NCBI GenBank assembly: GCA_027021385.1
Contig: JALUUL010000079.1
Location: forward strand, 126,329-190,328
Length of the DNA stretch: 64,000 bases
Source of the DNA: Planctomycetota bacterium
GTDB taxonomy: Bacteria; Planctomycetota; UBA1135; GCA-002748355
Direction: 5' to 3'
Of the stretch, positions 4,412 through 24,542 are shown piece by piece (the stretch's first letter is position 1; each line of letters starts with the position of its first letter). Below the pieces are notes generated by a model. That model saw nothing but the letters and a program-made list of their open reading frames with translations. It did no database searches and was not told the DNA's origin. A program made the position numbers and the translations under genes.

Positions 4412-4760
4412 GTGTACCTCACGGTGAAAGAGGGTCCTTCGGCCTGCTCGAAAGGGTCGTCCTGCATTCCGGGGCTCGGTGCCGGTAGGCAGATTCCCAC
4501 GATCCGGACCGAGGATCTTCAAGGGGAGGAGGCCGAGGTTCAAGAGCGTCCTCCATCCTGCGACGATCCGCCCATCGGCGGGCCTTCACCCTGCGGTCAC
4601 GCGCTCTTCGGGGAGCCATGAGCCGCGCGGAGGGCGGTTCGAACCCCCTGCGCCTGAGGGCCGACCTTCCGCCTGTGCTTCTTTCTCACAGGTTCCGGAA
4701 CGTCAAGAGACTCCGTCTCCCCGGGATTCCGGTCGAGACGGAGAGAAGCGAAGGATGGAT

Positions 4761-7519: not shown

Positions 7520-7521
7520 GC

Positions 7522-9468
7522 TCAAAACCTCCTGGCCACGGAAAGCATCGCATACAGGATCCGCTGATCGGTCGCGACGTCGAAAACCTCGTCGGAATAC
7601 CGGACTTGGAACTTCACCTCCGTAGCGCGGAATCTCTGGATCAAGTTGGACTCGAAGAGGAATCCTTTCCCTTTGTCAGTCCGATACTTGATCTTCCGCC
7701 ATTCGGCTCGGGTGTCGATCCTCGAGTTCTCGGAGAGAACCGCCAGAAGCTGGGCCTGGAGGGTCGTTCCGCGTTCCTTTCCCGTCTGGTCCTTGAATCT
7801 GGATTCGTAGGTCGTGGCGCTCGATCGGCCCTCCAGCCATTGGAGGATCCTCGTCGAGGTCGATGCGCCGAACTCCCACCTCTCGAAGGGGGTGAACTTG
7901 CTGTCGAGGTTCTCATACAGCCCGCGGACCTGATTGGGACCGGAATGGAGAGCCAGGCTGGCCTTCAACCTCGAGGAGTCGTCGAGAGTCCCCGAATCGA
8001 ATCCTCCGAGAAGGGATTGATTCGTTTCGGACCAGGCGAGTTCGATGTCGGCGAACTCCAGGATATCGAATCCGAACGTCAGGGATTGTCCGACGCTCTT
8101 GAAACGCTGCTCCGGCCGGGGAAGAAAGAGGTAATCGACGAGGATCACCTGATTCGGGAGGATTCTGCTCCCCGCTGGAATCTCGATCCTGACCCTGCCC
8201 GCCGAGACCGAGATCAGGTAATCCGTTCCGTTCTGGTAGACCGTGAGTCCGGTCGCATCGGTGATGACGATGCTGGAGAGATCCACGCTGAAGTTGTTCA
8301 GGAGAAGGGGGATGCCCGGAATATAGGTATGGCTTTCATCCAGGACGCTGACAGGCTTGTCATCACTCTGCTCGTTCTGCCAGTAGGTGTCCTGGTGGTA
8401 GTTGATGCGGAGGTTACCGAAGAAGGTCTTCTTCCGGTAATCGATATCTCCTACGTAACCCGCGCGGTTGATCGCCGCATCTCCCTGGTCCGTCCTCTGT
8501 CCCTGGAATCCGGCGCGCACGTCCAGGCTCGAAAAGAGTTCGTAGGTGAGGGTGGATGTATGCCTCCAGGTCTCATTCAGACTCGTATCGGCGTTGCGGA
8601 CCCGGAAGTGATCGAAGATGAGGTCGTGGTCGGAGGAGAGGTTCTCTCTCCATTGGAAGTGGAGACTCGCGTTTCCGATCAGGGACTCGTTGTCGTAATC
8701 GCCGTTTTGTTCCCGGTAGCGGATGGAGTTCGAGAAGGTGTCCTGGTCCTTGTTCCCGAAGTTCCACCCATGAGAAAAGAAGGCATCGAGGTCCGTGAAC
8801 TGGCTGTCGAAACTGCTGATCGTGATGTCGTTGTACTTGATCGAATACTGGAGCCTGCGTGTCTTGTCGAATCGACGTCCCTCGAACTCGAAGTTGTCCC
8901 TCGTCTCGTCGTTGTCGTCCAGCCCGCGACCTTTGTAGGTGTAATGATGGTAATGGAGCCTCGAGGGGATCCACCATTTCTTCGCGAGGAGGTCCATTCC
9001 CGTTTCGGTGACCGTGGCCTCGGTCGTTTCGAAGAAGGTCTGTCTGGTCCTCGTTTCCTGCCTGTTGGAATAGATGTGTGCGGAATAGGGATGCTGCCAG
9101 AGGATCCGGGCGTGGAAATCGTATCCAAGGTTCGTGCTGTTGATCGAACGGTTCCGGACTCCGGCCCCTCCGATCCATTGCTGTTCGAGCCCTAGCGACG
9201 TCGCGAGTTCGTATTCCAGGAGCCTGGGGTGGTAGATATCGCCGGCGAAGCGCAGGTGGAGGTCCTCTCGCAGGGTCTTCTCCTTCTCGATCAAAGTCGA
9301 ATAGTCGGTGACCCTCCGCTCGTCCCGATACTCCCCGCGGAGCTGGAAGTCTCCGCCGAACTCCGTCAGATGGAACCATGTCCGCCGCTGGGCGTTCACC
9401 GAGGACGCGGCGGCCAGGAGAACCGGCAAGACCGTGAGGCAGGCTCTCGTTCCCGCCCGGTTCTTCAT
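7522..9468 (-). CDS. Outer-membrane beta-barrel (porin of a porin-cytochrome conduit, ExtB/OmbB-like role)
   Basis: Signal peptide, many amphipathic aromatic-rich beta-strands, C-terminal ...YAMLSVARRF (terminal Phe); ATGA overlap with the upstream cytochrome gene. Confidence 0.8.
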   Translation of the reverse strand: MKNRAGTRACLTVLPVLLAAASSVNAQRRTWFHLTEFGGDFQLRGEYRDERRVTDYSTLIEKEKTLREDLHLRFAGDIYHPRLLEYELATSLGLEQQWIGGAGVRNRSINSTNLGYDFHARILWQHPYSAHIYSNRQETRTRQTFFETTEATVTETGMDLLAKKWWIPSRLHYHHYTYKGRGLDDNDETRDNFEFEGRRFDKTRRLQYSIKYNDITISSFDSQFTDLDAFFSHGWNFGNKDQDTFSNSIRYREQNGDYDNESLIGNASLHFQWRENLSSDHDLIFDHFRVRNADTSLNETWRHTSTLTYELFSSLDVRAGFQGQRTDQGDAAINRAGYVGDIDYRKKTFFGNLRINYHQDTYWQNEQSDDKPVSVLDESHTYIPGIPLLLNNFSVDLSSIVITDATGLTVYQNGTDYLISVSAGRVRIEIPAGSRILPNQVILVDYLFLPRPEQRFKSVGQSLTFGFDILEFADIELAWSETNQSLLGGFDSGTLDDSSRLKASLALHSGPNQVRGLYENLDSKFTPFERWEFGASTSTRILQWLEGRSSATTYESRFKDQTGKERGTTLQAQLLAVLSENSRIDTRAEWRKIKYRTDKGKGFLFESNLIQRFRATEVKFQVRYSDEVFDVATDQRILYAMLSVARRF

Positions 9469-10199
9469 CGATGGCCCCCTCCCTCTCCCGGGCGCCACTT
9501 CGGAGGTCTGGTCTCCATGGATTTCCGGGTTTTGCCCCTGCTTTCCTTCCCCAGGCCGGGAACGACGGTTGCCTTGATCATGTAGCGGCGCTTGGAGGAA
9601 TGGGGGTCATGACATTCCGTGCAGGATCCCTTCTCGAAGGTCTTGTGGCGTTTCCTCGTGACGAAGGTGTCCCCCGTGTGGCACCGCGCGCAGAGGGTGT
9701 CGGGATTCTTGACTTTCAGGAGGTGGGGGTATGAGGACCGGTGGTGCTCATGGCACTGGGCGCACTCGCCGGCGGCCACCGGCCCATGGACGAAGGCTTC
9801 CTCGGGGGGCTTATGGCATTTCTTGCACAGGAGCTTTTTCGGAAGGCGCAGCTCGGACAGACCCTGCCTCCAGGTGGGCTGGGAGTTTCCTCCACGGGGA
9901 GCGGTCGAATGGCAATCCCCGCATCGCTTCTCCTGGAAGGGTTTGTGGAAAAAGACCTCGACCTTCTTCAGCCGCTCCTCCTGGAGCTTGGCCCTCTCCT
10001 CTAGGGTCAGGGACCGGAGTTCAATTCGGGGAACCGGGCCGATGAAGTCGGGTGTTCCGGGAGTCCTGGGATCCGGAACCCCGTCGAAGAAGAAGGACAG
10101 GATCTCATACTTCTTGAGGGCCGTACAGGCAGCCGTCACTCCAAGGGGGCAGAAGGCCAGGAGAAGCAGGAGGGCCGGAGGACTTCGTCGGAGCGACAT
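9465..10199 (-). CDS. Lipoprotein pentaheme cytochrome c (ExtC-like partner of the porin)
   Basis: Lipobox-like VTAAC followed by LSFFFDGVP; 5 CxxCH; translationally coupled to the beta-barrel gene. Confidence 0.88.
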   Translation of the reverse strand: MSLRRSPPALLLLLAFCPLGVTAACTALKKYEILSFFFDGVPDPRTPGTPDFIGPVPRIELRSLTLEERAKLQEERLKKVEVFFHKPFQEKRCGDCHSTAPRGGNSQPTWRQGLSELRLPKKLLCKKCHKPPEEAFVHGPVAAGECAQCHEHHRSSYPHLLKVKNPDTLCARCHTGDTFVTRKRHKTFEKGSCTECHDPHSSKRRYMIKATVVPGLGKESRGKTRKSMETRPPKWRPGEGGGHR

Positions 10200-10346
10200 T
10201 CGGGAAGCCTGTCTTCGCTTGGGTCGGGAAATCGGGCGATCCGGACTCGGGCGAACCGCATCCCGAAGACCGGCCTCAGAGTCTCTTGATCCTTCCTTCC
10301 GCACCTCCGACTTCAGGAGAAAGGGAACAGGATTGCAACATGAGTG

Positions 10347-10363
10347 AGCAAGGTCCATGCCGG
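10347..10363 (-). promoter_or_regulatory. Sigma54 -24/-12 promoter for the leftward cytochrome/porin/Rieske-cytb operon
   Basis: Minus strand CCGGCATGGACCTTGCT: GG-N10-GC, close to consensus TGGCACGNNNNTTGCW, about 150 bp upstream of ATG 10199. Confidence 0.75.
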
Positions 10364-11293: not shown

Positions 11294-12373
11294 ATGATCT
11301 TCGCGACTCTCACCCTGAGCCTCGCTCTTCCCCTTCTTCTCCAGACGAGCCGACCCTCGGGAGGGCCGGTTACCCGGGAGTCGAAGGAGCGGGCGGGAAA
11401 ACCGGTGGAGAATCCTGTCCTTGCCGAGGTCGGGTCGGTGAAGATCCGCCAGAGCGATGTCCTTGCGGAGATCAACCGCCTGATTCCGCTGAACTTCTAT
11501 CACGGGAAGGTCCCCGTGGAGAAGATGGAATCCTTCCGGGACAAGGCCCTCCAGTCCCTGATCGAACGGGCCCTGATCCACCAGGACGCGCTCGCCTCGG
11601 GGCTGCGGGCGGGCGAGGAGGAGATCCGCGCGACATTCGAGGCCTCTCTGAAGAAGGCCGGTCCCAAGTACTCCGAACTCCCGTCCGAGGAGAAGGCGAA
11701 ACTCTTGGAAACATACCGGCCCCTCGTCGAGAGGAGGGTCTTGATCGACAAGAACGAGGCTCGTTTCGAAGCCTCCCTTCCTAAGGTCAAGGAGGAGGCC
11801 GTGAGGGCTACGTACGAGGCGAGGAAATCCAAGCTGCTGGCGCCCCGTGAGGGCCATTTCCTCCACATCCTCTTGAAGGTCGATCCCGGCGCCAGCGAGG
11901 CCGAGATCGCGAAGGCGAAGGAGAAGATGCTGAAGGCCCGGAAGGAGATCCTCGGAGGGCGCCCCTTCGCGGAGGTCGCGAAGGAGATCTCCCAGGATAT
12001 CTATGCCTCGAGGGGCGGGGACATGGGATGGGTCAAGGAGGGGAGTTTTCTCGGGGGGCCGGTCGGGGAGGCTGCGTTCAAGCTCGAGGCGGGAGAACTC
12101 TCGGAACTCGTCTCCTCGATCTATGGCTTCCATCTTGTCCAGTGTCTGGCCTGGAAACCGCGGAAGACGATGTCTTTCGAGGAAGCCAGAAAGAGTATCG
12201 AAATCGAACTCGAGGAGGCGATCCGGCGTTCGGCGCGGGAGCGCTGGCTGGCGACCCTGAGAGAGCGCTTTCCGGTGAAGATCCATCGAGTCGGGATCCT
12301 CGCGGAATCCCCGAAGGAAGAAACCGCTTCCTCGAAGCCGGCCTCCCGTCCCGGCCCGCATGGAGGGCGCTGA
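11294..12373 (+). CDS. Periplasmic PpiC/parvulin peptidyl-prolyl isomerase (SurA/PrsA-like foldase)
   Basis: Signal peptide, SurA-N-like helices, HILLKV...FAEVAKEISQD...GGDMGW...SIYGFHLV rotamase motif. Confidence 0.9.
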   Translation: MIFATLTLSLALPLLLQTSRPSGGPVTRESKERAGKPVENPVLAEVGSVKIRQSDVLAEINRLIPLNFYHGKVPVEKMESFRDKALQSLIERALIHQDALASGLRAGEEEIRATFEASLKKAGPKYSELPSEEKAKLLETYRPLVERRVLIDKNEARFEASLPKVKEEAVRATYEARKSKLLAPREGHFLHILLKVDPGASEAEIAKAKEKMLKARKEILGGRPFAEVAKEISQDIYASRGGDMGWVKEGSFLGGPVGEAAFKLEAGELSELVSSIYGFHLVQCLAWKPRKTMSFEEARKSIEIELEEAIRRSARERWLATLRERFPVKIHRVGILAESPKEETASSKPASRPGPHGGR

Positions 12374-12552
12374 CCTCCCGGCGGAACTGCGACGAACCGC
12401 CGCTTCCTTTTTCCATACTCGGGAATGGGTTTCGCCCGAAGGAAAGCAACGATGAGGACTCGAGTGCCGGGCGTTTCCAGGGCCTCGGACATGCTCCCGG
12501 TTCCGGCGCTTGGAACATCCGGGCGGAGTTCCTCCTTGGGGAGGGTCGAATC

Positions 12553-13836
12553 ATGATCTGGCCGTTCCTTTTGGCCGTCTTGTCGATCTACTCGCCGCAG
12601 GCGGGGGCGCAGGACCCTCGTAACAGCCATTGCATGTCCTGCCATCTTGCGAAGGACTCGAAGCTGCTGCACGCCTTCGAGGGGAGCGTCCATGGAATCG
12701 CGGGGATCGGCTGCATCGGTTGCCATGGAGGGGATCCTGGGGGGGAGACGAAGGAGGACGGGCATCTCCGTTCGAAAGGCTATTCGGGAGTCCTGAAGCG
12801 GCGGGACATCCCCGCATTGTGCGGGTCCTGTCACGGGGACGAGGCGGAGATGCGCAAGGTCCGCCTGGATTTCCGGGTCTACGAGGACTGGAAACGGAGC
12901 AAGCACGGGCGACTAGCGGCGAAGGGGGATCCCAGGGTTCCGATCTGCAGTGATTGTCACGGGGACCACGGGATCCTTTCGCGGCTCGATCCGGCTTCAC
13001 CGACCCACCGGCGGAACATCGCCGGAACCTGCGGCTCCTGCCACTCGGATCCGGTGAAGATGGGGGCCAGCAAGCTTCCGACGAATCAGGAGAAGGAATA
13101 CCGGGAAGGGATCCATGGGGAGATCCTTTACGGCAAGCGCAAGGGGAATCCGAACCTGGTTCCGACCTGCATCGATTGCCATGGAGGCCATGGAGCCGTT
13201 CCGCCGACCGCCCGATCCGTGCCGGAGGTCTGCGGGAGTTGCCATTTCGAGGAACGGAGGTTCCTCGCGCAGAGCCCCCACGCCGAATCCTTGCGGTTCA
13301 CGGGGGAACCTTCCTGCAAGGACTGCCACGGGAACCATCACAACACGATCCCCGAGGAAGGACTGCAGGAAAAGGTCTGTATCCCCTGCCACAACGATCC
13401 CAAGGACGTAGGTACCCGGGAGGCCAAGGCCTTCGCGAGCCTCCTGGCGCGGGGAGGCCAGGCCCTGGGGCGGCTGGACAAGGCTCTCGAAGAGGCGCAA
13501 GCGAGGGAGCCTTCCTCCCTGGTCTCCATGCTCCTCGAGGCGGAATGGAAGCGGGCCGAGACTGCCTATTCGACCCTGCGTAAGGAATCGCACACCCTGA
13601 ACCGTCCCATCGTCTCCAAGGCGGTCGAGGATCTGGAGAGCATCGTTCGGACGGTCCTGGCCGTCGCCGAGAACGGGATCGACCGTGAGAAGGGGTTTTC
13701 CGAGACGGTCACGATGATGATCCTCATTGGCGTCGGGAGCGGGCTCCTGGTCGCGAGCGTGGTCGTCGTCCTCCTGCTTCTCCGCATCCTTGGCCGAGGC
13801 AAGGACAGGAAAGCTGTAAAGGCCGGAGATTCTTGA
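12553..13836 (+). CDS. Membrane-anchored nonaheme cytochrome c
   Basis: Start reassigned to ATG 12553 (MIWPFLL signal peptide); 9 CxxCH; helical stalk and C-terminal TM helix. Confidence 0.9.
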   Translation: MIWPFLLAVLSIYSPQAGAQDPRNSHCMSCHLAKDSKLLHAFEGSVHGIAGIGCIGCHGGDPGGETKEDGHLRSKGYSGVLKRRDIPALCGSCHGDEAEMRKVRLDFRVYEDWKRSKHGRLAAKGDPRVPICSDCHGDHGILSRLDPASPTHRRNIAGTCGSCHSDPVKMGASKLPTNQEKEYREGIHGEILYGKRKGNPNLVPTCIDCHGGHGAVPPTARSVPEVCGSCHFEERRFLAQSPHAESLRFTGEPSCKDCHGNHHNTIPEEGLQEKVCIPCHNDPKDVGTREAKAFASLLARGGQALGRLDKALEEAQAREPSSLVSMLLEAEWKRAETAYSTLRKESHTLNRPIVSKAVEDLESIVRTVLAVAENGIDREKGFSETVTMMILIGVGSGLLVASVVVVLLLLRILGRGKDRKAVKAGDS

Positions 13837-13837
13837 C

Positions 13838-15499
13838 ATGAGGTCGGTTCTCCTCTTTCCGTTCCGGGTTCCCTTCCTCCTTCTCAAGTGGATGTTCGCG
13901 GGACGATACCGTTTCGTGTTCCTCCTCATCCTCGTATTCGGCGGCATGGTCTTCGGGACCGTCGAGGGATGGCATTACGCTTCCAGCCCGGATTTCTGCC
14001 GATCCTGCCACCACATGGAGCCCTACTGGCAGTCCTGGTCCCGCTCGACCCACAAGCACGTCCAATGCATCGGCTGCCATTTCGAACCGGGGCTCGGCAA
14101 CGAGTTCCATGCCAAGTTCCAGGCCCTGAAACAGCTCGCCAGCGCGGTGACGGGGATGTACAGCTCCAGACCCTTCGCGGAGGTCAGCGACCGTTCTTGT
14201 CTCCGGTCGGGTTGTCACAGTACGAGGGGGCTGGGGAAGGAAGTGGAGTTCTCGAAACGGGGGGTCTTTTTCGACCATCCGAAGCATCTGGGGGAGCTGC
14301 CCTTCGGGATCAAGCTGGCCTGCATCTCCTGTCATTCCCAGGTGACCGTCGACAACCACATGGAAGTGGACCGGAACACCTGTTTCCTGTGCCATTTCAA
14401 GGGTAGCAAGGCCCCCGACGGCACCCCCGACCCGATGGAGGCCTGCGGCGTCTGTCATGGAGCCCCCCGGAAGGAACTCTCGGTCGGGGGGTTGAAGATC
14501 GACCACAAGGATTTCCTGAAGCGCGGGATGGAATGCGCCCAATGCCACCTGGAGGTCGTGTCAGGAACCGGGGAGGTCGGCCGGGGGAGGTGTCTGGGTT
14601 GCCACAACCAGCCTTCCTATCTCGAGGAGTTCGGGGACGTGGAGGCCCTGCACCTCAAGCACGTGTCGATCCACAAATTGAACTGCTATCTGTGCCACGA
14701 ACGGATCGAGCACCGTTTCCGAACCGAGGAAGGAACTGTGGCAGAGTCCCATCCTAAGGGGCTCCCGGACGGGGACTGTTCCAAATGCCACCTGGAACCG
14801 CATAGCCCCCAAGCGGCCTTCTACGCCGGAAAGGGTGCAGTCTCCGTGCAAGGCGAGCCGGATCCGATGTCCAAATACGGGTTGGACTGCTCCGCCTGTC
14901 ACGGTCTGGCCCGCCGTTCCAAGGCCGAGATCAACGCCCATTCCCGCGTGGATTCGGCGACTCTCGCCCGGGGGTCTTGCAACGGATGTCACGGGCAGGG
15001 GTACAGTGAGTTCGTGGGTCCCTTCCTCGAGAGGGTCGGGGAGGTTCAGCACCATCTCGAAAAGCGTCTCGACCGCGTGCTGGAGACCTTCCGCGGGATC
15101 GAGGAGAGAGAAGATGTCGTTCCCAGGAAGACGTTCCACACCGCGAAGAACACGGAGAAAGACCTGGCATTCCTCCGGAGGGCGCGTCCTATACACAATC
15201 CCTTCTTCGCGGTCGCTATCCTGAGGCGGGCCGACAGGGATTTGGCCGTCGTCGAAAAGGACCTTGGAGTCCCTGTCCTACCCGGACGCCCCAAGGACTT
15301 CCCGAAGGAGGGATGCCTCGTCTGCCACGAGGCCCTGCCCCCCCCGGGGAAGATCAAGCTCAAGGACGGGAAGGTCTTTTCGCACCGGATGGCCTTCAAG
15401 GCCGACGGGCCGACCTGCACGGCCTGTCACAAGGGCCCGAACCATCCGGCCAAGCCCGTCGTTCCTTACGGGGTCTGCTCCACCTGCCACAAGAAATGA
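13838..15499 (+). CDS. NapC/NirT-family quinol dehydrogenase extended to ~15 hemes
   Basis: N-terminal TM helix, then SSPDFCRSCHHMEPY..W..STHKHVQCIGCH (NapC/NirT signature); 14 CxxCH plus CLRSGCH. Confidence 0.9.
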   Translation: MRSVLLFPFRVPFLLLKWMFAGRYRFVFLLILVFGGMVFGTVEGWHYASSPDFCRSCHHMEPYWQSWSRSTHKHVQCIGCHFEPGLGNEFHAKFQALKQLASAVTGMYSSRPFAEVSDRSCLRSGCHSTRGLGKEVEFSKRGVFFDHPKHLGELPFGIKLACISCHSQVTVDNHMEVDRNTCFLCHFKGSKAPDGTPDPMEACGVCHGAPRKELSVGGLKIDHKDFLKRGMECAQCHLEVVSGTGEVGRGRCLGCHNQPSYLEEFGDVEALHLKHVSIHKLNCYLCHERIEHRFRTEEGTVAESHPKGLPDGDCSKCHLEPHSPQAAFYAGKGAVSVQGEPDPMSKYGLDCSACHGLARRSKAEINAHSRVDSATLARGSCNGCHGQGYSEFVGPFLERVGEVQHHLEKRLDRVLETFRGIEEREDVVPRKTFHTAKNTEKDLAFLRRARPIHNPFFAVAILRRADRDLAVVEKDLGVPVLPGRPKDFPKEGCLVCHEALPPPGKIKLKDGKVFSHRMAFKADGPTCTACHKGPNHPAKPVVPYGVCSTCHKK

Positions 15500-15520: not shown

Positions 15521-18500
15521 TCAAGGAGTGAGTTCCAGCTTGGGGCGGATGGCCGAGCGATATCTGAGATAGGACAGCACGATGACGGCGATCTCGAAGA
15601 TGCAGAAGAGGGCCGCATAGAGCAGTCCTCCTTCCGAGGAGCCGTAGGAATGCAGGCCCGCGGCGAGAACGAAGTTGACCCCGTAATACGTCATGACGAC
15701 GGAGAGGAAGCTGGCGATCGAAGAGACGGCCAGTCCGAAGGGGTGGAGCCAGCCCGCGAAGCGTGCATGCACGATGCCCAGGTAGACGAAGAAGGTGATC
15801 AGGGACCAGGTTTCCTTCGGATCCCAACCCCAGTACCTCCCCCAACTTTCGTTGGCCCAAATGGCGCCGAAGACGATCCCGGCCGCGAGAAAGAGGAGTC
15901 CGACCTGCATCGTCTTGTAGGTGAGGTTCGTGAGGGTCCGGAGCATCTCGGTCCTCCCGGGCCGGAACAACTGGACCCAGATGACGATATGACCGAGTCC
16001 CATGTTCAGGGCGAAGGCGGAATAGGCCAGCATGATCGTCATCACGTGGACCGACAACCAGTAGGTGTGGGCCAGGACGGGCACGAGGGGGTTGATCGAG
16101 GAATCCAGGGGCAGGTGCTCCGAGAAGAGAAGGCAGAGGAAGCCCATCAGGCTTGCAACGAGTCCGAAGAAACGCTTGCGGTAGAGGAACTCGAGGAAGA
16201 GCCCGATCGCGATCGTGCCCCAACCCATGAAAACCAGGGATTCGTACATGTCCGAGACCGGAGCCCTTTCGGCGATTGCCCATCTGAGTCCGATGCCGGT
16301 CGTGTGAGCGGCGAAACCGAGGATCAGGGCCGTCATGCCCGCCCAATATCCCTTCCGGTTCTTGACGAAACCGAAGAAGAGGATCAGCAGGAAGCTCAGC
16401 AGATAGGCCTTCCAGGCCTTCCCGAAGGCCTCGAACTCTTCGTAAAAGATCTCCAGGGATAGGGCTTCCTCCGGAGGGTAGGTCTCGGGGCCCGCTTCCC
16501 GGAGAATTCCCGTCAGTTCTTCGGCGGCCTTGCCGAAGTCCTGTGGATCCTTGTCCCTCCATGCCTTGGACATCCGGATGAAACCGGCAAAGATCCGTTT
16601 TTGCAGGTCCGACTTCGCGTCCTTGAAGTCGTTCGGAGTTTCCCATTTTCCCTGGGAATCCTTGACGGGAACGATACGGAGGGATGTGCCGCGGAGAATC
16701 CCGGAGAGTAGTTCCAGGCGGCGGTAGACCTCGAGGGCGTCCTTCTCGATCTTCGTCAGGTCTTCGTGATTGCGGTCCTTGGTGATCGCGCGACCGGCGA
16801 CCTCTTGGAACCGCGGATGCATCATGAGCCGCAGGAAGGAGAAGCGTTTCTTCCCCTCCTCCAACTCCATCAAGGCCTTGAGTTCCTTACTGTCGATCCG
16901 GATATACGGTCGATTCCGGAAATCCTCCGGGGCGAGGTTGTAGCCCCAGAGCAGTTCGAGAGAGCTCAGGCCGTCGTGCTTCCTATGCCCGGTGATCGCG
17001 GTCGCGAACTCGTTCGCGAAAGTGAGAAGGGGTTTGATTCTTCCCGAGGACTGGATGGCCCAGGCCTTGGTCTTCTCGACCGGCATTCCCGTCGGGCCGC
17101 CTGAGGCCTTCGCGGGCACGGAGGAGAGCAGGACCGCGGCCAGGAACCAGAAACCCGTCAATGCCCCCTTCGTTGCGGTATGACCCATGTTCGTGGCCTC
17201 CTGTGCGGGGTTCTTTTCCATGTTCGTCACCGACTCCTTCCTGTTCATGGGTTCCGGCCCGTCGATCCCGGGCCTCCTCGGTTTTCCGTGTCCGCGCAGA
17301 TACCAGGCGATTCCCAGGATGATCAGAAAGAAACTCGGGTAGACGATCGGGACTCCCGGGTCCTTGGAGACGGAGAGGATCGTCATGTCCGGGCCGCCTC
17401 TCTCCCCGAGCTGGTAACTGCTTTGGAAGAGCCGGAAGCCTCCGTAGTCGAGCGGGCGGTTCATCGAGATCACGGTCTCGATAGGCTCCTCGTCGATCCC
17501 GTGCGGAGTCACCTTGACCTTCGAGGCATAGGTCTTGGGACGCCTCGAACCGGGGTAGAACTCCAGGATGAAGTCCTCGAGTTCGAGACTGAAGGGCAGT
17601 TCCTTCGTCGAGCGTTTATAGGCGAAGAGGAGCGAGCCTCCTTCGAGTCCGATTTCGTCGTCCCAACCCCGGCCGATCCAGAAGGTGTTTTCCTTCCCCT
17701 TCCAGTGGGCCTTCAGTTTCAGGAAGGCGCGATTCGTCTCTTTCCCCTTCTTGGAGGATTCGACCCGGACCTCGGCCTTGGCGCTCTTCACGAACCGTTC
17801 GAGTTTGAAATCCAATCCGAGGTTTCCGACTGCGATTGTCTGCCCCTCGATGATTTCGAGGGCGGGCCCCCGCCCGATCGAGGCCGAGAGTTGGATCCAG
17901 AACCTCTTGCCTCCGTCATGGAGGATCGAGACCAAGGGCTTCTTGCCGGCGGAATTCGCCTCGAGGCGGATCCTTTGAACGAGGGGGGCTCCCTTCTGGC
18001 CCCGGATCGAGTTGAAGGTAGGGAAATTGGCGAAGACCTTGTGGATCTCTGTGTGGCTCTTCCCCCGGACCTCGACGACGGCGGCGGGATTACTGCCCGA
18101 TCCGGGGACGTTGCGCAGCTTGCCCTGGACGATCTTGGCTTCAGGCATGAAGGACAGGACCTTCACCGAGATTCCTTCCCCGGCCTGGACGACCTTCCCG
18201 AGAGAAGCGGGAAGGGGGAGGTCCAGGGGGGAACCTTTCTCGGACACGAGGACACGGATGCTGGAGCCACCGGTCTTTCGCTCGGGGAGACGGCCTTTCA
18301 AGGCTTCCGGGTCCCGGATCACGAGGAACTCGATCTCGACCGGGCCGACGTCCTTCCTGCGGAAGTCGGCATGGTCGGCGATCAGCCATTGCCTGCCCTC
18401 GACACCCATCCCGGAGAGCTGGAACTGGATGCCTGGGCTCCCCTCCACCCCGGCGTCCGTAAGGTGGACGTAAGGGGTCCCATCCTCGAGGAAGCGTTCG

Positions 18501-19024
18501 ATCGAGAGGCCGGGATGCCCTTCCTCCTCCTCGAGGAGGGTGATCCCCGCGAGTCGCACGGTGTCGGGGAGTTCGAGGATCTCGTGGTAGGGCTTTCCTT
18601 TCAGGGGCTTCCAGCGTAGATCGAGGTGGCTGCGATCCAGGAAGAGGGTCCTCGATTCGGTTCCCTCCTGCACGGCCATCCGCCCCTCGTATCCGAAGGT
18701 CCGGGACACCCAACCTCCGAAGAGGAGCAGGACGATCGAGAAGTGGGTGAGGACGAAGGCCCACTGATGCCGTTTGATCGGGATCCGGTTGATGACCGCC
18801 ACGATCAAGTTGACGGCGATCAGGAAGAGGAAGAGATCGAACCAGGCCGTCCGGTAGACCCAGGATTGGGCGAAGGCCCTTGAGGTCGAGGATTCGATCA
18901 GGGTCCCGACGATCATCGCGACCACCCCGAAGATGAGCAGGACCATCGTGAACTGGACCTTGCCCAGGAAGCGGAGGAAGCGGAGGGCCGCGGGTTCTGT
19001 CTTCGTGCTCATGCGGGCGTCCAT
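15521..19024 (-). CDS. ccsBA: Fused System II cytochrome c synthase (ResB/CcsB plus CcsA/ResC)
   Basis: N-terminal ResB-like TMs (GTLIES, LTHFS, ISMNRPL..GGFRLFQSSY) and C-terminal WWD domain GAIWANESWGRYWGWDPKETW, GLHSYG. Start could be 19012, 19024 or 19033. Confidence 0.95.
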   Translation of the reverse strand: MDARMSTKTEPAALRFLRFLGKVQFTMVLLIFGVVAMIVGTLIESSTSRAFAQSWVYRTAWFDLFLFLIAVNLIVAVINRIPIKRHQWAFVLTHFSIVLLLFGGWVSRTFGYEGRMAVQEGTESRTLFLDRSHLDLRWKPLKGKPYHEILELPDTVRLAGITLLEEEEGHPGLSIERFLEDGTPYVHLTDAGVEGSPGIQFQLSGMGVEGRQWLIADHADFRRKDVGPVEIEFLVIRDPEALKGRLPERKTGGSSIRVLVSEKGSPLDLPLPASLGKVVQAGEGISVKVLSFMPEAKIVQGKLRNVPGSGSNPAAVVEVRGKSHTEIHKVFANFPTFNSIRGQKGAPLVQRIRLEANSAGKKPLVSILHDGGKRFWIQLSASIGRGPALEIIEGQTIAVGNLGLDFKLERFVKSAKAEVRVESSKKGKETNRAFLKLKAHWKGKENTFWIGRGWDDEIGLEGGSLLFAYKRSTKELPFSLELEDFILEFYPGSRRPKTYASKVKVTPHGIDEEPIETVISMNRPLDYGGFRLFQSSYQLGERGGPDMTILSVSKDPGVPIVYPSFFLIILGIAWYLRGHGKPRRPGIDGPEPMNRKESVTNMEKNPAQEATNMGHTATKGALTGFWFLAAVLLSSVPAKASGGPTGMPVEKTKAWAIQSSGRIKPLLTFANEFATAITGHRKHDGLSSLELLWGYNLAPEDFRNRPYIRIDSKELKALMELEEGKKRFSFLRLMMHPRFQEVAGRAITKDRNHEDLTKIEKDALEVYRRLELLSGILRGTSLRIVPVKDSQGKWETPNDFKDAKSDLQKRIFAGFIRMSKAWRDKDPQDFGKAAEELTGILREAGPETYPPEEALSLEIFYEEFEAFGKAWKAYLLSFLLILFFGFVKNRKGYWAGMTALILGFAAHTTGIGLRWAIAERAPVSDMYESLVFMGWGTIAIGLFLEFLYRKRFFGLVASLMGFLCLLFSEHLPLDSSINPLVPVLAHTYWLSVHVMTIMLAYSAFALNMGLGHIVIWVQLFRPGRTEMLRTLTNLTYKTMQVGLLFLAAGIVFGAIWANESWGRYWGWDPKETWSLITFFVYLGIVHARFAGWLHPFGLAVSSIASFLSVVMTYYGVNFVLAAGLHSYGSSEGGLLYAALFCIFEIAVIVLSYLRYRSAIRPKLELTP

Positions 19025-19153
19025 CCCGGTCAACCGGGTACGGAGGAAGGCTCGGTCCGCCCTTCCCCGGGAGGCTTCCCCCCCCCGGGAGGTCCGGCGG
19101 TCATTCGGGTCCGAGGGAACCCGAGCGGAACGATGTCGGCGACGCGGAGGTAG

Positions 19154-19170
19154 TGCAAGGCACGTGCCGG
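19154..19170 (-). promoter_or_regulatory. Sigma54 -24/-12 promoter for ccsBA
   Basis: Minus strand CCGGCACGTGCCTTGCA, a near-perfect match to TGGCACGNNNNTTGCW. Confidence 0.82.
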
Positions 19171-19344
19171 GAAGCGGCCTTTTTTCGATCGGATTTCCCG
19201 AAGAGAAGGAAGGTGGACGATCTGCCGAAGTCTCGGCGAGTCTGCCAAGAACTCGTCGTCACGGAGGATTGATTCAGGAAAAAATGCCGTGGCCCCTTCC
19301 GGGGTGGGGTATTTTTCCATGCCTGCCCGAGCCTCGCAAAACTT

Positions 19345-19363
19345 TGTCATCGCAATGTCATCG
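19345..19363. promoter_or_regulatory. 11-bp-spaced direct repeat TGTCATCG (Pho-box/OmpR-family-like operator)
   Basis: TGTCATCG at 19345-19352 and 19356-19363, in the divergent ccsBA/omcE-like intergenic region. Confidence 0.45.
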
Positions 19364-19431
19364 AATGCATGGCGGGGACCCGGAAAAGGATGCGGCAATT
19401 GCGCACGAGGTCCGGGGCCGTCTTTTCCGGG

Positions 19432-19447
19432 TGGCCTGCTTGTTGCT
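19432..19447 (+). promoter_or_regulatory. Sigma54 -24/-12 promoter for the omcE-like gene
   Basis: TGGCCTGCTTGTTGCT (GG-N10-GC), about 120 bp upstream of the start. Confidence 0.75.
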
Positions 19448-19567
19448 CTTCTCCCGGTCGCTCACCTCGGAGGCGGCTCCGAGGAGCCCGCCTAGGGGCG
19501 GGAAGACGAGAAACTGAAAACCGTTCGTTGGACACCTTCCCTGCCACAGATGGAAAGGATGAAAGTC

Positions 19568-20251
19568 ATGAAACTAACCGCCGGACTCCTGTCCTTGGGT
19601 TGCCTGATCGCGCTGAGCGCCCCCGCTTCTGCGCAGATCAAGAACTCCACCCACGACTTCAGCACGAAGACCTGGAACTTCCGTGCGGAAATTTGCCGGG
19701 TCTGCCACGTTCCTCACGACCATGACTACACCACCAAGCGCGGCCTTGTCTCAGGTCTGTTGTGGAACCACGCGCTCTCCAGCGCGACCTACACGATGTA
19801 TACCAGCCCCTCCCTGGATGGAGCCATCGACTCCGCGCCGACCGGGACCTCGAAGCTCTGCCTCGGCTGCCATGACGGCACTGTCGCCCTCGACGCCTTC
19901 GACAAGAACCCGGACAACTGGGTCGGCAGCTACCTCGGCGGCAGCGCCCGGGTGCCGGGGAGCAACTACTGGAGCGGCAGCACCGGCGACTTGAGGGCCA
20001 CGCACCCGATCTCCATCGTCTACGACGAGACGAAGGACAAGGGGCTGGCACCGAAGACCACGACCTTCGGCGGCTCCGGGACGATCGCGGACGTCCTCGA
20101 GGGTGGGACCAAGGTCCAGTGCTCGACCTGCCACGATGTCCACAACGAAGCGGGCGAGGCCGTTCCCGGCACCCACCTGCTCCGCATCGCCCAGACCACG
20201 GCACAGGGCGGCACGGCTTCCGGGCTCTGCCTCACCTGCCACGTGAAGTAA
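19568..20251 (+). CDS. OmcE-like tetraheme cytochrome c (candidate nanowire subunit)
   Basis: Signal peptide ending ASA-Q. The mature chain IKNSTHDFS..ICRVCHVPH..LWNH..YTMYTS..SKLCLGCHDG..DL..THPI..VQCSTCHDVH..LLR..LCLTCHVK has the same motif order and similar length as Geobacter OmcE. GAAAGGA RBS; alternative starts 19550/19559. Confidence 0.88.
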   Translation: MKLTAGLLSLGCLIALSAPASAQIKNSTHDFSTKTWNFRAEICRVCHVPHDHDYTTKRGLVSGLLWNHALSSATYTMYTSPSLDGAIDSAPTGTSKLCLGCHDGTVALDAFDKNPDNWVGSYLGGSARVPGSNYWSGSTGDLRATHPISIVYDETKDKGLAPKTTTFGGSGTIADVLEGGTKVQCSTCHDVHNEAGEAVPGTHLLRIAQTTAQGGTASGLCLTCHVK

Positions 20252-20276
20252 CGCATATCCATCCTCTGAGGTGGGA

Positions 20277-20309
20277 AAGGGCGCCGGACCCTTCGGGTTC
20301 GGCGCCCTT
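20277..20309 (+). terminator. Strong stem-loop after the omcE-like gene (terminator or mRNA-stabilising hairpin)
   Basis: AAGGGCGCCGGACC-CTTCG-GGTTCGGCGCCCTT, 14-bp stem with one G-U pair; no long U-tract. Confidence 0.65.
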
Positions 20310-20460
20310 CGCATGTCCGGATCGGATCTTGCTCCGTTGCTTTCCGGCGGAACCCGAGAGGCCCGTGAGTGCCGTTCCGGCCGGGAACGAGCTGCGGCTT
20401 TTTCCCGCTCCGGGGGGCCGCTAGCCTGGAGCCGTCCCTCTCCTGGAGAGCCTGAATACG

Positions 20461-21690
20461 ATGAACCCTTCCTTCCAAGCCAGCATGCGCCGGTTTTCGA
20501 GAGCCTGTCGGTTCTCCCTCAGCTGCAGCGTCATCTTCCTCCTCGGATCCTGCGCCTCCGCGGGTTCGAGGGAGGGGGAGCAGGAGAAGGTCTTCTACCC
20601 CGAACCGCCCGATCCTCCGAGGATCCAGTTCCTGATGGCGATCGCCGACGGTGAAGACCTGGAGGGAGGACCCTCCGGTCTGGACAGCCTCCTCTTCGGC
20701 GGGAAGAAGAAAGGAGGCAAGCCCCTACTGCGGCCCTTCGGGGTGACCTTCCATGAGGGAAAGGCCTACATCACGGACACCCGTCTCGGAGTCGTGATCA
20801 TCGCCGACCTCGAGAAGAAGAAGGTGGACCTCGCTCCCGTCAAAGGAAGAGGGCGGACGATGAAGCCGATGGCCGTCGAAGTACTCGAGGACGGTCGGAT
20901 CCTCGTTGCGGACGCCGGCAGGCGCCAGATCGTCTTCTACGACCGGAACTGGAAGTACCAGGCGGAATGGGGTCCCTTCGGCAAGGGGAGCGTCCCCGTC
21001 GACGTGAAGGTCAAGGGGAACCGGGTCTACGTCGTCGACGGGAACCGGAAGGGGGGAAGCCTCCGTGTGCTGGACCTGAAAACGGGGAAGGAACTGTTCG
21101 TTCTGGGGAAGAAGGAGACCCGGGCCGAATTCCTCCGGGGTCCGACGAGCGTAGCAGTCGATGACAAGGGATTCATCTACGTCGTCGACACGATCTACTG
21201 CCAGGTCTACGTCTGGGACAAGGACGGAAATTTCGTCCGCCACATCGGAGAACCGGGGGACATGGCGGGGCAGTTCGGGCGCCCCAAGGGGATCGGGGTC
21301 AGCGAGAACCTCCTCTTCGTCCTGGACACAGCCTTCGAGAACTGTCAGCTCTTCGATCTGGACGGGCGGATCCTGATGTTCTTCGGTGGGCCGGGGACGG
21401 GTCCCGGTCAGATGTACATGCCCGCGAAGATCTGGGTCGGGGACGAGGGTCTCGAATACTTCAAGGACAGGATCGATCCGGATTTCAAAGCCGAACATCT
21501 GATCCTCGTGACGAACCAGTTCGGCCCGAACAAGCTTGCATTCTACGCGTTGGGTCACCACAAGAAGTTCAAGTATCCGAAGAGCGAGCTACCGGAAGTT
21601 CCCTCCAAGCAGGCCCCCGAGGAAGATCCCGCGAAGAAGGGGCCCGGCGCCCCCCGAAAGGGAGCCGGGTCCGGGGAAATGCTGGACTAG
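20461..21690 (+). CDS. NHL-repeat beta-propeller lipoprotein
   Basis: LLGSC lipobox, FYPEPPDPPRIQFL, NHL blades (GPTSVAVDDKGFIYVVD, QFGRPKGIGV). Confidence 0.9.
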   Translation: MNPSFQASMRRFSRACRFSLSCSVIFLLGSCASAGSREGEQEKVFYPEPPDPPRIQFLMAIADGEDLEGGPSGLDSLLFGGKKKGGKPLLRPFGVTFHEGKAYITDTRLGVVIIADLEKKKVDLAPVKGRGRTMKPMAVEVLEDGRILVADAGRRQIVFYDRNWKYQAEWGPFGKGSVPVDVKVKGNRVYVVDGNRKGGSLRVLDLKTGKELFVLGKKETRAEFLRGPTSVAVDDKGFIYVVDTIYCQVYVWDKDGNFVRHIGEPGDMAGQFGRPKGIGVSENLLFVLDTAFENCQLFDLDGRILMFFGGPGTGPGQMYMPAKIWVGDEGLEYFKDRIDPDFKAEHLILVTNQFGPNKLAFYALGHHKKFKYPKSELPEVPSKQAPEEDPAKKGPGAPRKGAGSGEMLD

Positions 21691-21699
21691 GCCGCGAAC

Positions 21700-23154
21700 T
21701 TGACGAACGACGCTCCGCGATCGACCGGGGAAACCGCCGCCTCTCCCTCTTCCACCGAGGAGAAGAAGGTCCTCGGTCCTCTCCTCAGGAAAGGCGAGGC
21801 GGGGGGGCTGCCATCCTCGATGGCCTGGTTGATCCAGTTGCGCTGGATCGCGGTCCTCTGCGTCTCCCTGACCCTCGTCCTGGCTTTCGGACTGGGGGTC
21901 ATCGACCACCTCCTTCCCCCCCTGGGCGTGGTCTTCGGGCTGTCCCTGTTCAACGCGACGCTCTGGGCCGCAGGGAGGAAGCACCTTCCGATCGCCATCC
22001 CGGGGCCTCCCAAGAGCCGATACCGGCGTGTGATCGCCCTGCAGCTCCATGTGGACCTGTTCGCCCTCACGCTCCTGTTGCATTGGTCGGGCGGGGTCGA
22101 GAACCCGTTCTCCCTGTTCTACCTTTTCCACATCGCGATCGGTTCGATCCTCCTGACCACGAGGCAGACCGCCGTGCTCGTCGCCAGCGGTTGCCTGATG
22201 TTCTGTGTCCTGAGCCTCGGGGAATACGGGGGATTCCTGGAACACCATCCGATCAAGCTGATCTCGGGGATCGACGGAGAGGACTCCTCCCTGCTTGCGA
22301 TCTCCCCTTTCTTCGTGCTTGGAAAGGTCTTCGCGACCTGCCTGACGATGGTCGGAGTCGCCTTCTTCCTCCAATCGGTCGTGCGCCGGCAACGGGAAGC
22401 GGAGATCCTCCGCCGGCAGCACGAGAGGATCGCCGTCTCGAGGCAGCGCCTGGCCCGGATCGGCGAGATCTCCGCCGGGCTCGCTCACAGCATCCGCAAT
22501 CCCCTCCATGGCGTCCTCAACTGCCTCGAGATGGTTCCCGAGGAGGCTCTGGATGAGTCTGATCGAGAGAACCTCGCGCTGATGAGGGAGGGTTTGTACC
22601 GGATCCAGGGAGTCACGGACCGCCTCTTGGTCCTGACGCGGGACGCCCCTCTCCGGAGGCAACCGGGCGATCTCATCGACCAGGTTCGGGAGCTGATCCG
22701 TTACGTCGAGCCCCAGGCCGCGAAGGCGGGGATCGAGATTCGGTCCGAACTGGCTCCCGTTCCCTCCCTGATGCTCGATCCGGACCGCATCCACGAGGTC
22801 CTTTTCAATATTCTCGACAACGCCCTCGACGCCTGCCGGGAATCCGGCGGCCGGCGGATCACGATCCGTGGGGGCACGGCGTCAGGGGACGGCGGCAAGG
22901 CCTTCATCGAGATCGAGGACGAGGGGCCGGGCCTCGAGGAGGGCTGGATCGAGAAGATTTTCGACCCCTTTTTCACGACGAAGGCCATCGGAGAGGGAAC
23001 TGGCCTCGGACTTGCAATCGCAAGGAGGGTCGTGGAAGAACATGGAGGCCGGATCCTCGTCCGGAGCAAAAAGGGCAGGGGGTGTTGCTTCAGGGTCGAG
23101 CTTCCTCTCGGGGACCGGCCTCTGGCCCAGGAACTCGAAGGGGAGGACGCATGA
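21700..23154 (+). CDS. Membrane sensor histidine kinase with a RegB-type GGxxNPF motif
   Basis: About 6 TM helices with SGGVENPF; H-box AGLAHSIRNPL; N, G1, F and G2 boxes (NILDNALDA, DEGPG, IFDPFFTTK, GTGLGL). Confidence 0.92.
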   Translation: MTNDAPRSTGETAASPSSTEEKKVLGPLLRKGEAGGLPSSMAWLIQLRWIAVLCVSLTLVLAFGLGVIDHLLPPLGVVFGLSLFNATLWAAGRKHLPIAIPGPPKSRYRRVIALQLHVDLFALTLLLHWSGGVENPFSLFYLFHIAIGSILLTTRQTAVLVASGCLMFCVLSLGEYGGFLEHHPIKLISGIDGEDSSLLAISPFFVLGKVFATCLTMVGVAFFLQSVVRRQREAEILRRQHERIAVSRQRLARIGEISAGLAHSIRNPLHGVLNCLEMVPEEALDESDRENLALMREGLYRIQGVTDRLLVLTRDAPLRRQPGDLIDQVRELIRYVEPQAAKAGIEIRSELAPVPSLMLDPDRIHEVLFNILDNALDACRESGGRRITIRGGTASGDGGKAFIEIEDEGPGLEEGWIEKIFDPFFTTKAIGEGTGLGLAIARRVVEEHGGRILVRSKKGRGCCFRVELPLGDRPLAQELEGEDA

Positions 23155-24542
23155 AGCCGAATCTGCAAGTCCTCGTTGTGGACGACGACCGGATCAGCCG
23201 CCTGACGACTGCGCAGCGATTGCGGAAAGGGGGGTACGGCGCGGATGCCGTCGAGAATCCCTTTCTGGCTCTCCAGAGGCTCGGCGAGGAGCGCTGGGAC
23301 GTCGTGCTCACGGATCTGCGCATGCCTCGCATGTCAGGCATCGAGTTCCTGAAGAAGGTCAAGGAGAAGCATCCGGAAGTCGAAGTCATCTTGATGACGG
23401 CCTTCGCGACGGTCGAGACGGCAGTCGAAGCGATGCAGTCGGGCGCGTCGGACTATCTCGTGAAACCCTTCCGGTTCGAAGAGTTGGATCTACGTCTGAA
23501 GAAACTGCAGGAGCTGAAGGAAGCGCACAAGGAACTCGACCATCTCCATGCGATCCTCGGTGATGCGAAGGGTTTCGGAGGGTTGGTCGGGCATTCCCCC
23601 CTGATCCGTGAGGTCTATGAGAGGATCCAGATCTTCGCGGATCATGACGCTCCGGTCCTGATCACCGGGGAGACCGGGACGGGAAAGGAACTGGTCGCGC
23701 GGGCGCTGCACCAGGGGAGTTCGAGGGCACAAGGCCCCTTCGTGCCGATCGCCTGCGGGACAATCCCTCCGGAACTGGCGGAAAGCGAACTCTTCGGCCA
23801 TGAGAAAGGAGCGTTCACCGGCGCCCACCAGCGCAGGGAGGGAAGCTTCGGGCGGGCGGACGGCGGCACCGTCCTGCTCGACGACATCGATGACCTGCCC
23901 TTGAACATCCAAGTCAAGCTGCTCCGCGTCCTCCAGGAAGGGACCCTGATCCGGGTCGGGGGGACGGAGGAGATCCGGATCGACGTCCGCGTGATCGCGA
24001 CGACGAAGGTGGACCTCGCCGAGGAGGTCGAGCACGGCAGGTTCCGGGACGACCTCTTCTATCGACTGCGGGGCCTGGAGATCCGCCTGCCTCCGCTCCG
24101 AGAGCGGGGGGAGGACGTGCTCCTGCTCGCCAAACACTTCATCGATCTCGTCGCTTCCCGGGAGGGGAAGGAACCGAAGCCCTTGTCCCTCGAGGCCGCC
24201 CGACTGCTCCGGGAATACCACTGGCCCGGCAACGTGCGTGAGTTGCGCCGGGCGATGGAGTCGGCCTTCATCTTGTGCCGGGGCGAGGAGATCCTTCCCG
24301 AGCATTTCCCCGCCTTTCTGCCCCGCCGGAGGGGGGAGCCCGGGAAGGATCTCCAACCTTTCTCCCTCCACCTCGACGGGCTCGAGCGCATCGATTTCAA
24401 CGAGATGGTCCAGACCTTCGAGGATGCGATGATCCTTTGGGCCCTTTCTCAAGCAGGCGGGCAGCAGACGAAGGCGGCGGAACTCCTCGGCCTCCCTCGC
24501 ACGACCTTTCAGAGCAAGCTGAACCGTACCCATCCCGGGTGA
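23151..24542 (+). CDS. Sigma54-dependent response regulator (NtrC/AtoC family)
   Basis: Receiver domain, GETGTGKE Walker A, ESELFGHEKGAFTGA, WPGNVREL, Fis-type HTH; ATGA overlap with the kinase. Confidence 0.95.
   Translation: MKPNLQVLVVDDDRISRLTTAQRLRKGGYGADAVENPFLALQRLGEERWDVVLTDLRMPRMSGIEFLKKVKEKHPEVEVILMTAFATVETAVEAMQSGASDYLVKPFRFEELDLRLKKLQELKEAHKELDHLHAILGDAKGFGGLVGHSPLIREVYERIQIFADHDAPVLITGETGTGKELVARALHQGSSRAQGPFVPIACGTIPPELAESELFGHEKGAFTGAHQRREGSFGRADGGTVLLDDIDDLPLNIQVKLLRVLQEGTLIRVGGTEEIRIDVRVIATTKVDLAEEVEHGRFRDDLFYRLRGLEIRLPPLRERGEDVLLLAKHFIDLVASREGKEPKPLSLEAARLLREYHWPGNVRELRRAMESAFILCRGEEILPEHFPAFLPRRRGEPGKDLQPFSLHLDGLERIDFNEMVQTFEDAMILWALSQAGGQQTKAAELLGLPRTTFQSKLNRTHPG

Follow-up and report, generated by a model that had tools for sequence, protein, structure and literature searches.

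A Planctomycetota gene cluster encoding an OmcE-family tetraheme cytochrome, a plausible subunit of an extracellular filament

Does the tetraheme c-type cytochrome encoded at 19568-20251 on the forward strand of a 64,000-nucleotide stretch of a Planctomycetota metagenome-assembled genome (MAG) form filaments, as OmcE of Geobacter sulfurreducens does? The stretch analysed, hereafter the window, is positions 126,329 to 190,328 of contig JALUUL010000079.1 (assembly GCA_027021385.1), and the host genome comprises 3.69 Mb in 86 contigs at 93% completeness. RpoC places the host in Planctomycetota: its best hits reach 93% identity, and of the 33 hits with a named organism 32 are Planctomycetota or Planctomycetes. 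Cytochrome nanowire structures have been solved from few organisms, and an initial annotation of the window, made from its letters, proposed that the gene encodes an abundant, stand-alone, polymerising OmcE-like subunit. We find that interpretation to be partly supported. Comparison with relatives makes the protein a plausible filament subunit, a reading towards which we lean with modest confidence; its probable role is to build or cap a conduit for electrons outside the cell.

Relation of the tetraheme protein to OmcE

The gene in question is annotated as follows.

19568..20251, forward strand: OmcE-family tetraheme c-type cytochrome, 227 aa; four CxxCH and four distal His, full-length match to 7tfs_A/9yuq_N

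Its translation carries CxxCH motifs at C43, C98, C185 and C221 and, outside these motifs, histidines at H29 (THDF), H50 (CHVPH), H146 (THPI) and H192 (CHDVH), the same four-plus-four set that the initial annotation had listed, together with the LWN, Y-x-S, CHDG and C-terminal LC..CH.K elements also named there. Two observations favour a start at 19568 over the in-frame ATG further upstream (19550): a GGAAAGGA Shine-Dalgarno sequence stands 8-15 nt ahead of 19568, and the equivalent Met opens the homologues. Residues 1-22 read by eye as a typical Sec signal peptide with an ASA/Q23 cleavage site. In an alignment of 26 homologues (37-85% identity, chosen among 268 retrieved) none of the eight heme-ligand positions varies, nor do P49, W66, Y78, D103, G104, P147, D190 and L205. 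Eight invariant Cys-motif and His positions correspond to the number of axial ligands of four bis-His hemes, and we infer such ligation from the alignment.

A single-sequence phmmer search against all PDB chains returned two strong matches and no others, both full length (residues 5-227) and both OmcE chains: 9yuq_N (E=1.5e-12), from the Desulfuromonas soudanensis WTL OmcE bundle, and 7tfs_A (E=5.9e-11), from G. sulfurreducens OmcE. A profile of the 26 homologues matched the two solved subunits at 2.9e-38 and 3.6e-35. Each CxxCH and each extra His aligns in HMMER with the matching residue of both chains, and the OmcE motifs that the initial annotation had named (KHDL, CHTPH, DHPV, CHKVH, LC..CHK) do stand in the same order in the alignments to 7tfs_A; the likeness to OmcE, with full-length matches to both solved filament subunits and the eight ligands kept, is upheld.

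The window protein and G. sulfurreducens OmcE (227 and 232 aa, each with an N-terminal signal peptide) align end to end and share four CxxCH and four distal His in identical order, in the contexts HD-x-S, CH-x-PH, LWN, CHDG, DHP, CH-x-VH and LC..CH-K. They differ in that single-sequence similarity is low (45.7 bits) with divergent loops, that the host here is a Planctomycetota MAG, and that OmcE is a proven polymer and the window tetraheme a candidate one. The D. soudanensis bundle is the best single-sequence PDB match, although its bundling loops are described in the accessible text of PMC13712944 (mBio, 2026) as not conserved among homologues. OmcS (6EF8) also forms filaments of bis-His multihemes in which His ligation crosses between subunits. 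It matches weakly and locally, around the C-terminal CxxCH pair (E=1.7e-3 with the single sequence, 5.4e-7 with the profile), but it is a hexaheme of 407 aa from a different family, with no full-length homology.

Pfam and NCBIfam searches of the tetraheme found generic multiheme signatures only (PF09699 at 22.9 bits, PF14522, PF22113), which, with its small size and Sec signal peptide, is what a soluble periplasmic shuttle of the c3/STC type, merely homologous to OmcE, might also present. We hold such a shuttle to be very improbable: the full-length, ligand-for-ligand match is to OmcE and not to c3/c7 structures, the PDB search returned no c3/c7 chain at E<=10 except NrfB at 4.6, and the linkage to barrel and propeller genes described below is conserved across phyla. 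By sequence, then, the tetraheme is a Sec-exported, single-module cytochrome of the OmcE family. Of 3235 candidates from a word-indexed search, 2368 proteins matched at E<=1e-3, with 85% identity for the closest; within Planctomycetota the family is rare, with a match at E<=1e-10 in 9 of 301 sampled genomes, the host included.

The surrounding cluster and its counterparts elsewhere

A scan of one genome per species yielded 568 confirmed relatives among 599 matched stretches, from which the best 80 loci were kept; homologues near their OmcE-like genes were located by tblastn with the window proteins. All 80 loci are from MAGs, of Planctomycetota, Nitrospirota, Bacteroidota, Ignavibacteriota, Calditrichota, Gemmatimonadota, Verrucomicrobiota, Acidobacteriota, Pseudomonadota, Thermodesulfobacteriota and others. 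The genes accompanying the tetraheme gene in the window are listed here with their recurrence among these loci (ORF, open reading frame; PPIase, peptidyl-prolyl isomerase).

1099..2070, reverse strand: 5-CxxCH cytochrome; homologue in 0 of 80 loci
1923..2930, reverse strand: AhpC/TSA thioredoxin-fold and TPR protein
2957..4543, reverse strand: 13-CxxCH cytochrome (c13); homologue in 57 of 80 loci
4761..6485, reverse strand: undecaheme cytochrome; OmcE-like module at about residues 17-214, then seven CxxCH and a conserved CxxxCH
6482..7525, reverse strand: NHLa, second NHL beta-propeller, probable lipoprotein (PF01436 9.9e-33, LSFASC lipobox); homologue in 70 of 80 loci
7522..9498, reverse strand: large outer-membrane beta-barrel, 657 aa, about 28 long strands, signal peptide, C-terminal ...RRF; homologue in 40 of 80 loci
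9465..10358, reverse strand: c5b, 5-CxxCH cytochrome, barrel partner; in 47 of 80 loci, usually between the NHLb and barrel genes
11294..12373, forward strand: SurA-like PPIase (PF00639 7.3e-18), corresponding to UetB in the available description of Uet
12028..13836, forward strand: 9-CxxCH cytochrome; start uncertain, ORF overlaps the PPIase gene
13838..15499, forward strand: 14-CxxCH cytochrome, probable inner-membrane quinol dehydrogenase, NapC/NirT-type N-terminus (PF03264 6.1e-13, residues 28-109)
15521..19033, reverse strand: fused ResB/CcsB, system II cytochrome c maturation (PF05140 2.5e-26 and PF01578 1.4e-34 in one 1170-aa ORF)
20461..21690, forward strand: NHLb, NHL-repeat beta-propeller, probable lipoprotein (PF01436 E=2.4e-11, LLGSC lipobox); in 71 of 80 loci
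21700..23154, forward strand: membrane sensor histidine kinase, AtoS/ZraS-like, below equivalog cut-offs; homologue in 20 of 80 loci
23082..24542, forward strand: NtrC-family sigma-54-dependent response regulator (TIGR01818 E=2.6e-128, below the equivalog cut-off); in 26 of 80 loci

A homologue of the undecaheme gene is present in all 80 loci (in 46 of them a single piece covers at least 50%) and one of ResB in 10. The recurring order is (histidine kinase, response regulator), OmcE-like gene, NHLb, c5b, barrel, (c13), NHLa, undecaheme, with the response regulator often directly upstream of the OmcE-like gene; a Geobacter MAG locus (L056) follows it exactly, and in a Planctomycetota locus (L009) the layout is split and inverted like that of the window. 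The NHL gene noted 3' of the tetraheme gene in the initial annotation is confirmed at 20461-21690, and of the 59 related loci having at least 1.5 kb of downstream sequence, 43 have an NHL gene that begins no more than 700 nt downstream. By its position next to the NHLb propeller gene, the tetraheme gene is the counterpart of the subunit gene in omcE/Uet-type clusters. 'Stand-alone' is accordingly apt for the protein, a single-domain one, and not for the gene, which is part of a conserved multi-gene cluster contained whole within the window.

The minimal omcE cluster, as given in the accessible text of PMC13712944, consists of OmcE, two beta-propeller lipoproteins, two multiheme cytochromes and a large beta-barrel, with resB/ccsB flanking. 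All of its components are encoded in the window, which thus matches the D. soudanensis cluster in content and differs from it in being laid out as two divergent blocks 9 kb apart. That text reports homologues with cluster context in five phyla, among which Planctomycetota does not appear, so that by sequence the window tetraheme is an OmcE-family cytochrome in a phylum not yet listed for omcE clusters. The present locus places a complete omcE/Uet-type cluster in a Planctomycetota MAG, and the related loci carry the omcE gene order into Bacteroidota, Ignavibacteriota, Calditrichota, Gemmatimonadota, Verrucomicrobiota, Acidobacteriota and others.

A second published system resembles the window in its inventory. 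The Uet cluster of Ca. Tenderia electrophaga, as far as its available description goes (bioRxiv 10.1101/2022.05.06.490989), comprises the tetraheme UetA, the PPIase UetB, the 28-strand barrel UetC, the NHL proteins UetH/I, the undecaheme UetJ, CcsA/B and a TPR protein. The window likewise has a tetraheme, a PPIase, a barrel of about 28 strands, two NHL proteins, an undecaheme, a CcsA/CcsB-type maturation gene and a TPR protein, a likeness of gene inventory rather than of compared sequences; both the PPIase and the system II resB/ccsB genes beside the cluster are present. Gallionella also carries a Uet cluster, according to the accessible part of PMC10734462, and a Gallionella locus in our set (L065) has a tetraheme homologue 45% identical to that of the window. 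The three triheme c7 proteins (UetD/E/G) and the cupredoxin UetF of the Tenderiales cluster were not found among the scanned ORFs of the window cluster, which has instead a pentaheme whose Pfam hits are c7-like; this difference is irrelevant to the Desulfuromonadia form. No link between UetA and OmcE was found in the searchable literature, where the one paper naming both does so in separate contexts, and the accessible text of PMC13712944 makes no mention of Uet. Judged by inventory, the Uet and omcE clusters may well be the same machine.

This likeness bears on the direction of electron flow. Uet has been proposed, in the accessible parts of its descriptions, to serve electron uptake in cathode-oxidising Tenderiales and in Gallionella (bioRxiv 10.1101/2022.05.06.490989; PMC10734462), and the window hardware could run inward, with Fe(II), reduced minerals or a partner cell as the electron source, whether the tetraheme is a polymer or a monomer. 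We regard an uptake role as a possibility somewhat short of an even chance. It accords with the match between window gene content and the Uet list, with the iron- and sulfur-oxidiser lineages among the related loci (Gallionella, L065; Thiobacillaceae, L037; Thiodiazotropha, L070, L073 and L075), and with the label, hydrothermal vent metagenome, of the sole DNA run in which the window sequence is listed (no RNA run with it is listed). Set against these are the presence of the cluster in Geobacteraceae and the origin of the solved OmcE filaments in metal reducers, and the NapC/NirT-type quinol dehydrogenase beside the cluster fits outward flow equally well.

Three of the neighbouring proteins merit further description. 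The barrel protein (7522-9498) has no Pfam hit; its AlphaFold2 (AF2) model is all-beta with a predicted local distance difference test (pLDDT) score of 88.9, and Foldseek aligns the model mainly with large outer-membrane barrels (Cir, LptD, MtrB (6r2q_B), FimD), at template modelling (TM) scores of only 0.30-0.35. The 14-CxxCH NapC/NirT-type protein is a candidate quinol dehydrogenase feeding the conduit; it has an N-terminal transmembrane helix, and homologues occur in only 2 of the 80 loci. The NtrC-family regulator probably starts at a Met near 23151. The fused ResB/CcsB gene is divergent from the tetraheme gene, with a 534-bp intergenic region between them.

Promoter motif, 3' hairpin and codon usage

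Two features flank the tetraheme gene.

19432..19446, forward strand: sigma-54-type -24/-12 element TGGC-N7-TTGC, exact match, 122 nt before the tetraheme start
20257..20327, forward strand: strong 3' stem-loop, 13-bp G+C core at 20279-20307, no T-tract

The first agrees with the initial annotation, which had assigned the gene its own sigma-54 promoter. Exact TGGC-N7-TTGC matches number two in the whole window against 0.76 expected, a count that is weak taken alone (17 of 100 shuffled sequences hold two or more). In 10 of 78 loci the 300 nt ahead of the orthologous gene hold the strict motif too, where a background rate of 0.0076 per 300 nt would give about 0.6, and several of the ten are of the consensus TGGCAC...TTGC type. 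What a sigma-54 promoter requires is found here: correctly spaced GG (-24) and GC (-12) in the predicted motif, rpoN, which occurs twice in the host genome with both copies above the family cut-off, and an adjacent NtrC-type activator gene. A promoter scan of 19000-21800 found no sigma-70-like site, and a search for upstream activator sites gave two weak inverted repeats only (19275-19321 and 19378-19432). Sequence features thus indicate that the tetraheme gene is probably under sigma-54 control, and the dedicated sigma-54 two-component pair is a likely regulatory input. No counterpart of this control did we find described for OmcE in the accessible text of its sources.

A second exact TGGC-N7-TTGC (23001-23015, forward strand) lies inside the 3' end of the histidine kinase gene, about 135 nt ahead of the likely activator start, and may reflect autoregulation or chance.

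The 3' hairpin, also as first annotated, folds at -47.7 kcal/mol (z = -5.8), and none of 200 shuffled sequences folds equally well; a terminator scan made no call on it, the T-tract being absent. Of 79 loci, 44 fold with z<=-3 in the 90 nt past the stop codon of the orthologous gene (median z -3.4); among control genes, such structures follow NHLb in 2 of 62 cases and the undecaheme gene in 2 of 41. A hairpin placed in this way is what one would expect if a subunit were produced in larger amounts than its accessory proteins. An NHLb neighbour together with a conserved 3' hairpin offers a context rule for picking probable filament subunits among the thousands of OmcE-like sequences.

The C-ending codon bias described in the initial annotation is present (C at four-fold sites 0.55, 83rd genome percentile; G+C at third codon positions, GC3, 0.88), but it does not mark high expression, and the word 'abundant', drawn from that bias, does not survive calculation of the codon adaptation index (CAI). 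With 27 ribosomal and elongation-factor genes as reference, the tetraheme gene has a CAI of 0.696, the 53rd percentile of 2233 genes. CAI medians are barely apart between ribosomal genes (0.734) and the genome (0.690), and both CAI and four-fold C are uninformative as proxies for expression in this host.

The reverse-strand block at 1099-10358 (c13, undecaheme, NHLa, barrel and c5b genes) has a GC3 of 0.72-0.79, lower than the genome and than the tetraheme gene, and CAI values in the 8th-23rd percentiles. In a quick tree the tetraheme groups with sequences of several other phyla. The low GC3 and CAI of the block and this grouping suggest horizontal acquisition.

Modules in series, filaments and their ends

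Relatives of the tetraheme occur as modules of longer chains. Natural concatemers hold two to four family modules with 0-3 residues between them (P0121, 1400 aa; P0169, 965 aa; P0173, 459 aa; the modules of P0121 span 13-226, 228-410, 412-593 and 597-799), and at their junctions the distance from the last CxxCH His to the His of the next HD(F/L)S is a constant 9-10 residues. The window tetraheme has a 2-residue C-terminal tail and a 6-residue mature N-terminal arm, which together come close to that distance; by analogy, these are the lengths that cutting a chain between its modules would be expected to leave.

The undecaheme cytochrome carries such a module at its N-terminus. That of the window matches 7tfs_A at E=1.7e-32 and the window tetraheme at E=1e-22; among 45 extracted undecaheme homologues an OmcE-like module (about residues 10-212) is present in 41, and exactly 11 CxxCH are found in 38. 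Forty-two undecaheme modules form one clade (FastTree support 0.946) apart from 85 stand-alone tetrahemes, in trees that left out the solved OmcE sequences 7TFS and 9YUQ. A conserved His lies 10 residues past the last CxxCH of the module; the undecaheme has 16 conserved non-motif His for 12 motifs, a tally uninformative on whether a ligand is donated. The conserved CxxxCH at undecaheme residues 560-565 could bind a 12th heme.

In a sample of 61 Geobacteraceae genomes, 28 hold an undecaheme homologue at E<=1e-30. Among the 34 matches listed, 14 span nearly the whole undecaheme and 13 its C-terminal part only, and in each of the five inspected loci the missing N-module is a separate gene for a 300-aa OmcE-like protein directly upstream, after NHLa. 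The remaining heptaheme of these split loci (L086-L090, from genomes G328, G318, G306, G349 and G311), about 369 aa, has its own signal peptide. Descent of G. sulfurreducens OmcE itself from such a fission was considered and dropped, the split OmcE-like half matching 7TFS at only 2.9e-13. The concatemers, the undecaheme N-module and the split Geobacteraceae genes therefore point, as patterns of sequence, to head-to-tail docking of family modules, in trans as well as in cis.

On the model of UetA and UetJ, the tetraheme might, instead of polymerising, be an exported conduit part of fixed stoichiometry, docked on the undecaheme or on the barrel-pentaheme and adding four hemes without forming a long filament. 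The OmcE-like module of the undecaheme would supply a matching docking face, and the Geobacteraceae split into an OmcE-like protein and a heptaheme implies that 1:1 complexes of such modules exist; the average CAI of the tetraheme gene also agrees with this reading. We nevertheless think a non-polymerising part rather unlikely, if far less so than the periplasmic shuttle, since the separate promoter motif and the conserved hairpin found at the tetraheme gene only suggest excess over the partners, two homologues polymerise (7TFS, 9YUQ), and concatemers of up to four modules indicate that the family can chain serially.

Several points weigh against the tetraheme as a filament subunit. The family is very large: an exhaustive search of 50%-identity representatives gave 3599 at E<=1e-3, 1603 at 1e-10 and 89 at 1e-30. 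To our knowledge, polymerisation is established for only two of its members (7TFS, 9YUQ). Codon usage gives no sign of high tetraheme expression, and barrel, c5b, undecaheme and two NHL genes occur together in only 15 of the 30 loci of at least 18 kb. A heme-free AF2 model of the tetraheme, at pLDDT 43, is too poor for superposition on OmcE. A profile of the stand-alone proteins (A1) scores 135 and 125 bits against the two solved subunits, and one of the undecaheme N-modules (A3) scores 170 and 136 bits. UetA is predicted to be extracellular and one that 'may interact' with the undecaheme UetJ, a polymer not being proposed in the available text (bioRxiv 10.1101/2022.05.06.490989), and the authors of PMC13712944, in its accessible part, narrow nanowire candidates by context, with barrel and propeller as criterion.

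Two copies of residues 23-227 modelled together with 4 of the 8 hemes gave ipSAE values of 0.01 and 0.16 (mark 0.42), which speak neither for nor against an interface. With regard to lineage, the solved subunits 7TFS and 9YUQ should by position be stand-alone proteins, yet the N-module profile scores at least as well with them, and 7TFS scores higher with the window undecaheme N-module (116 bits) than with the window tetraheme.

Taking the tetraheme as a filament subunit, we can outline how the cluster might work. Hemes would be attached in the periplasm by ResB/CcsB, with the PPIase and the thioredoxin-like protein aiding maturation, and the tetraheme would be passed outward through or onto the barrel of about 28 strands with the help of the two propeller lipoproteins. 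Outside the cell, subunits would stack head to tail, the N-terminal-arm H29 of each completing the bis-His ligation of a heme that sits by the C-terminal CxxCH of the subunit before it, which would produce a continuous heme chain as in OmcE filaments; we infer this inter-subunit ligation and the polymerisation by analogy with OmcE. Electrons would arrive from the quinol-oxidising NapC/NirT-type 14-heme protein via periplasmic multihemes and the barrel-bound pentaheme. The adjacent sensor kinase and NtrC-type activator would switch on transcription from the sigma-54 promoter, and the 3' hairpin would keep subunit mRNA in excess of that of the downstream accessory genes.

The undecaheme may have a place in the same structure. 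We propose, tentatively and as something less probable than the filament itself, that it is the end-piece of OmcE-type nanowires, either a cap at the tip or a basal anchor. The His of the N-terminal arm of its module could plug the unsatisfied heme at one end of the filament, the last heme of the module would be completed in cis by the conserved His 10 residues downstream, as at concatemer junctions, and seven or eight more hemes would prolong the chain. The discussion in PMC13712944, in the text available, states that no tip or anchor candidate is apparently encoded in OmcE operons, and the undecaheme offers a concrete candidate for a piece that the field lists as unknown. If the proposal is true, the Uet clusters of electron uptake and the omcE clusters of metal reducers would be a single nanowire machine, both ancient and horizontally mobile, that occurs in many more than twelve phyla.

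In several related loci (L011, L022, L041, L066, L067 and L075 among them) there are two or even three stand-alone OmcE-like genes, which either lie in tandem or flank the cluster on its two sides, and five-heme variants are mentioned in the accessible text of PMC13712944; subunit paralogy may be common.

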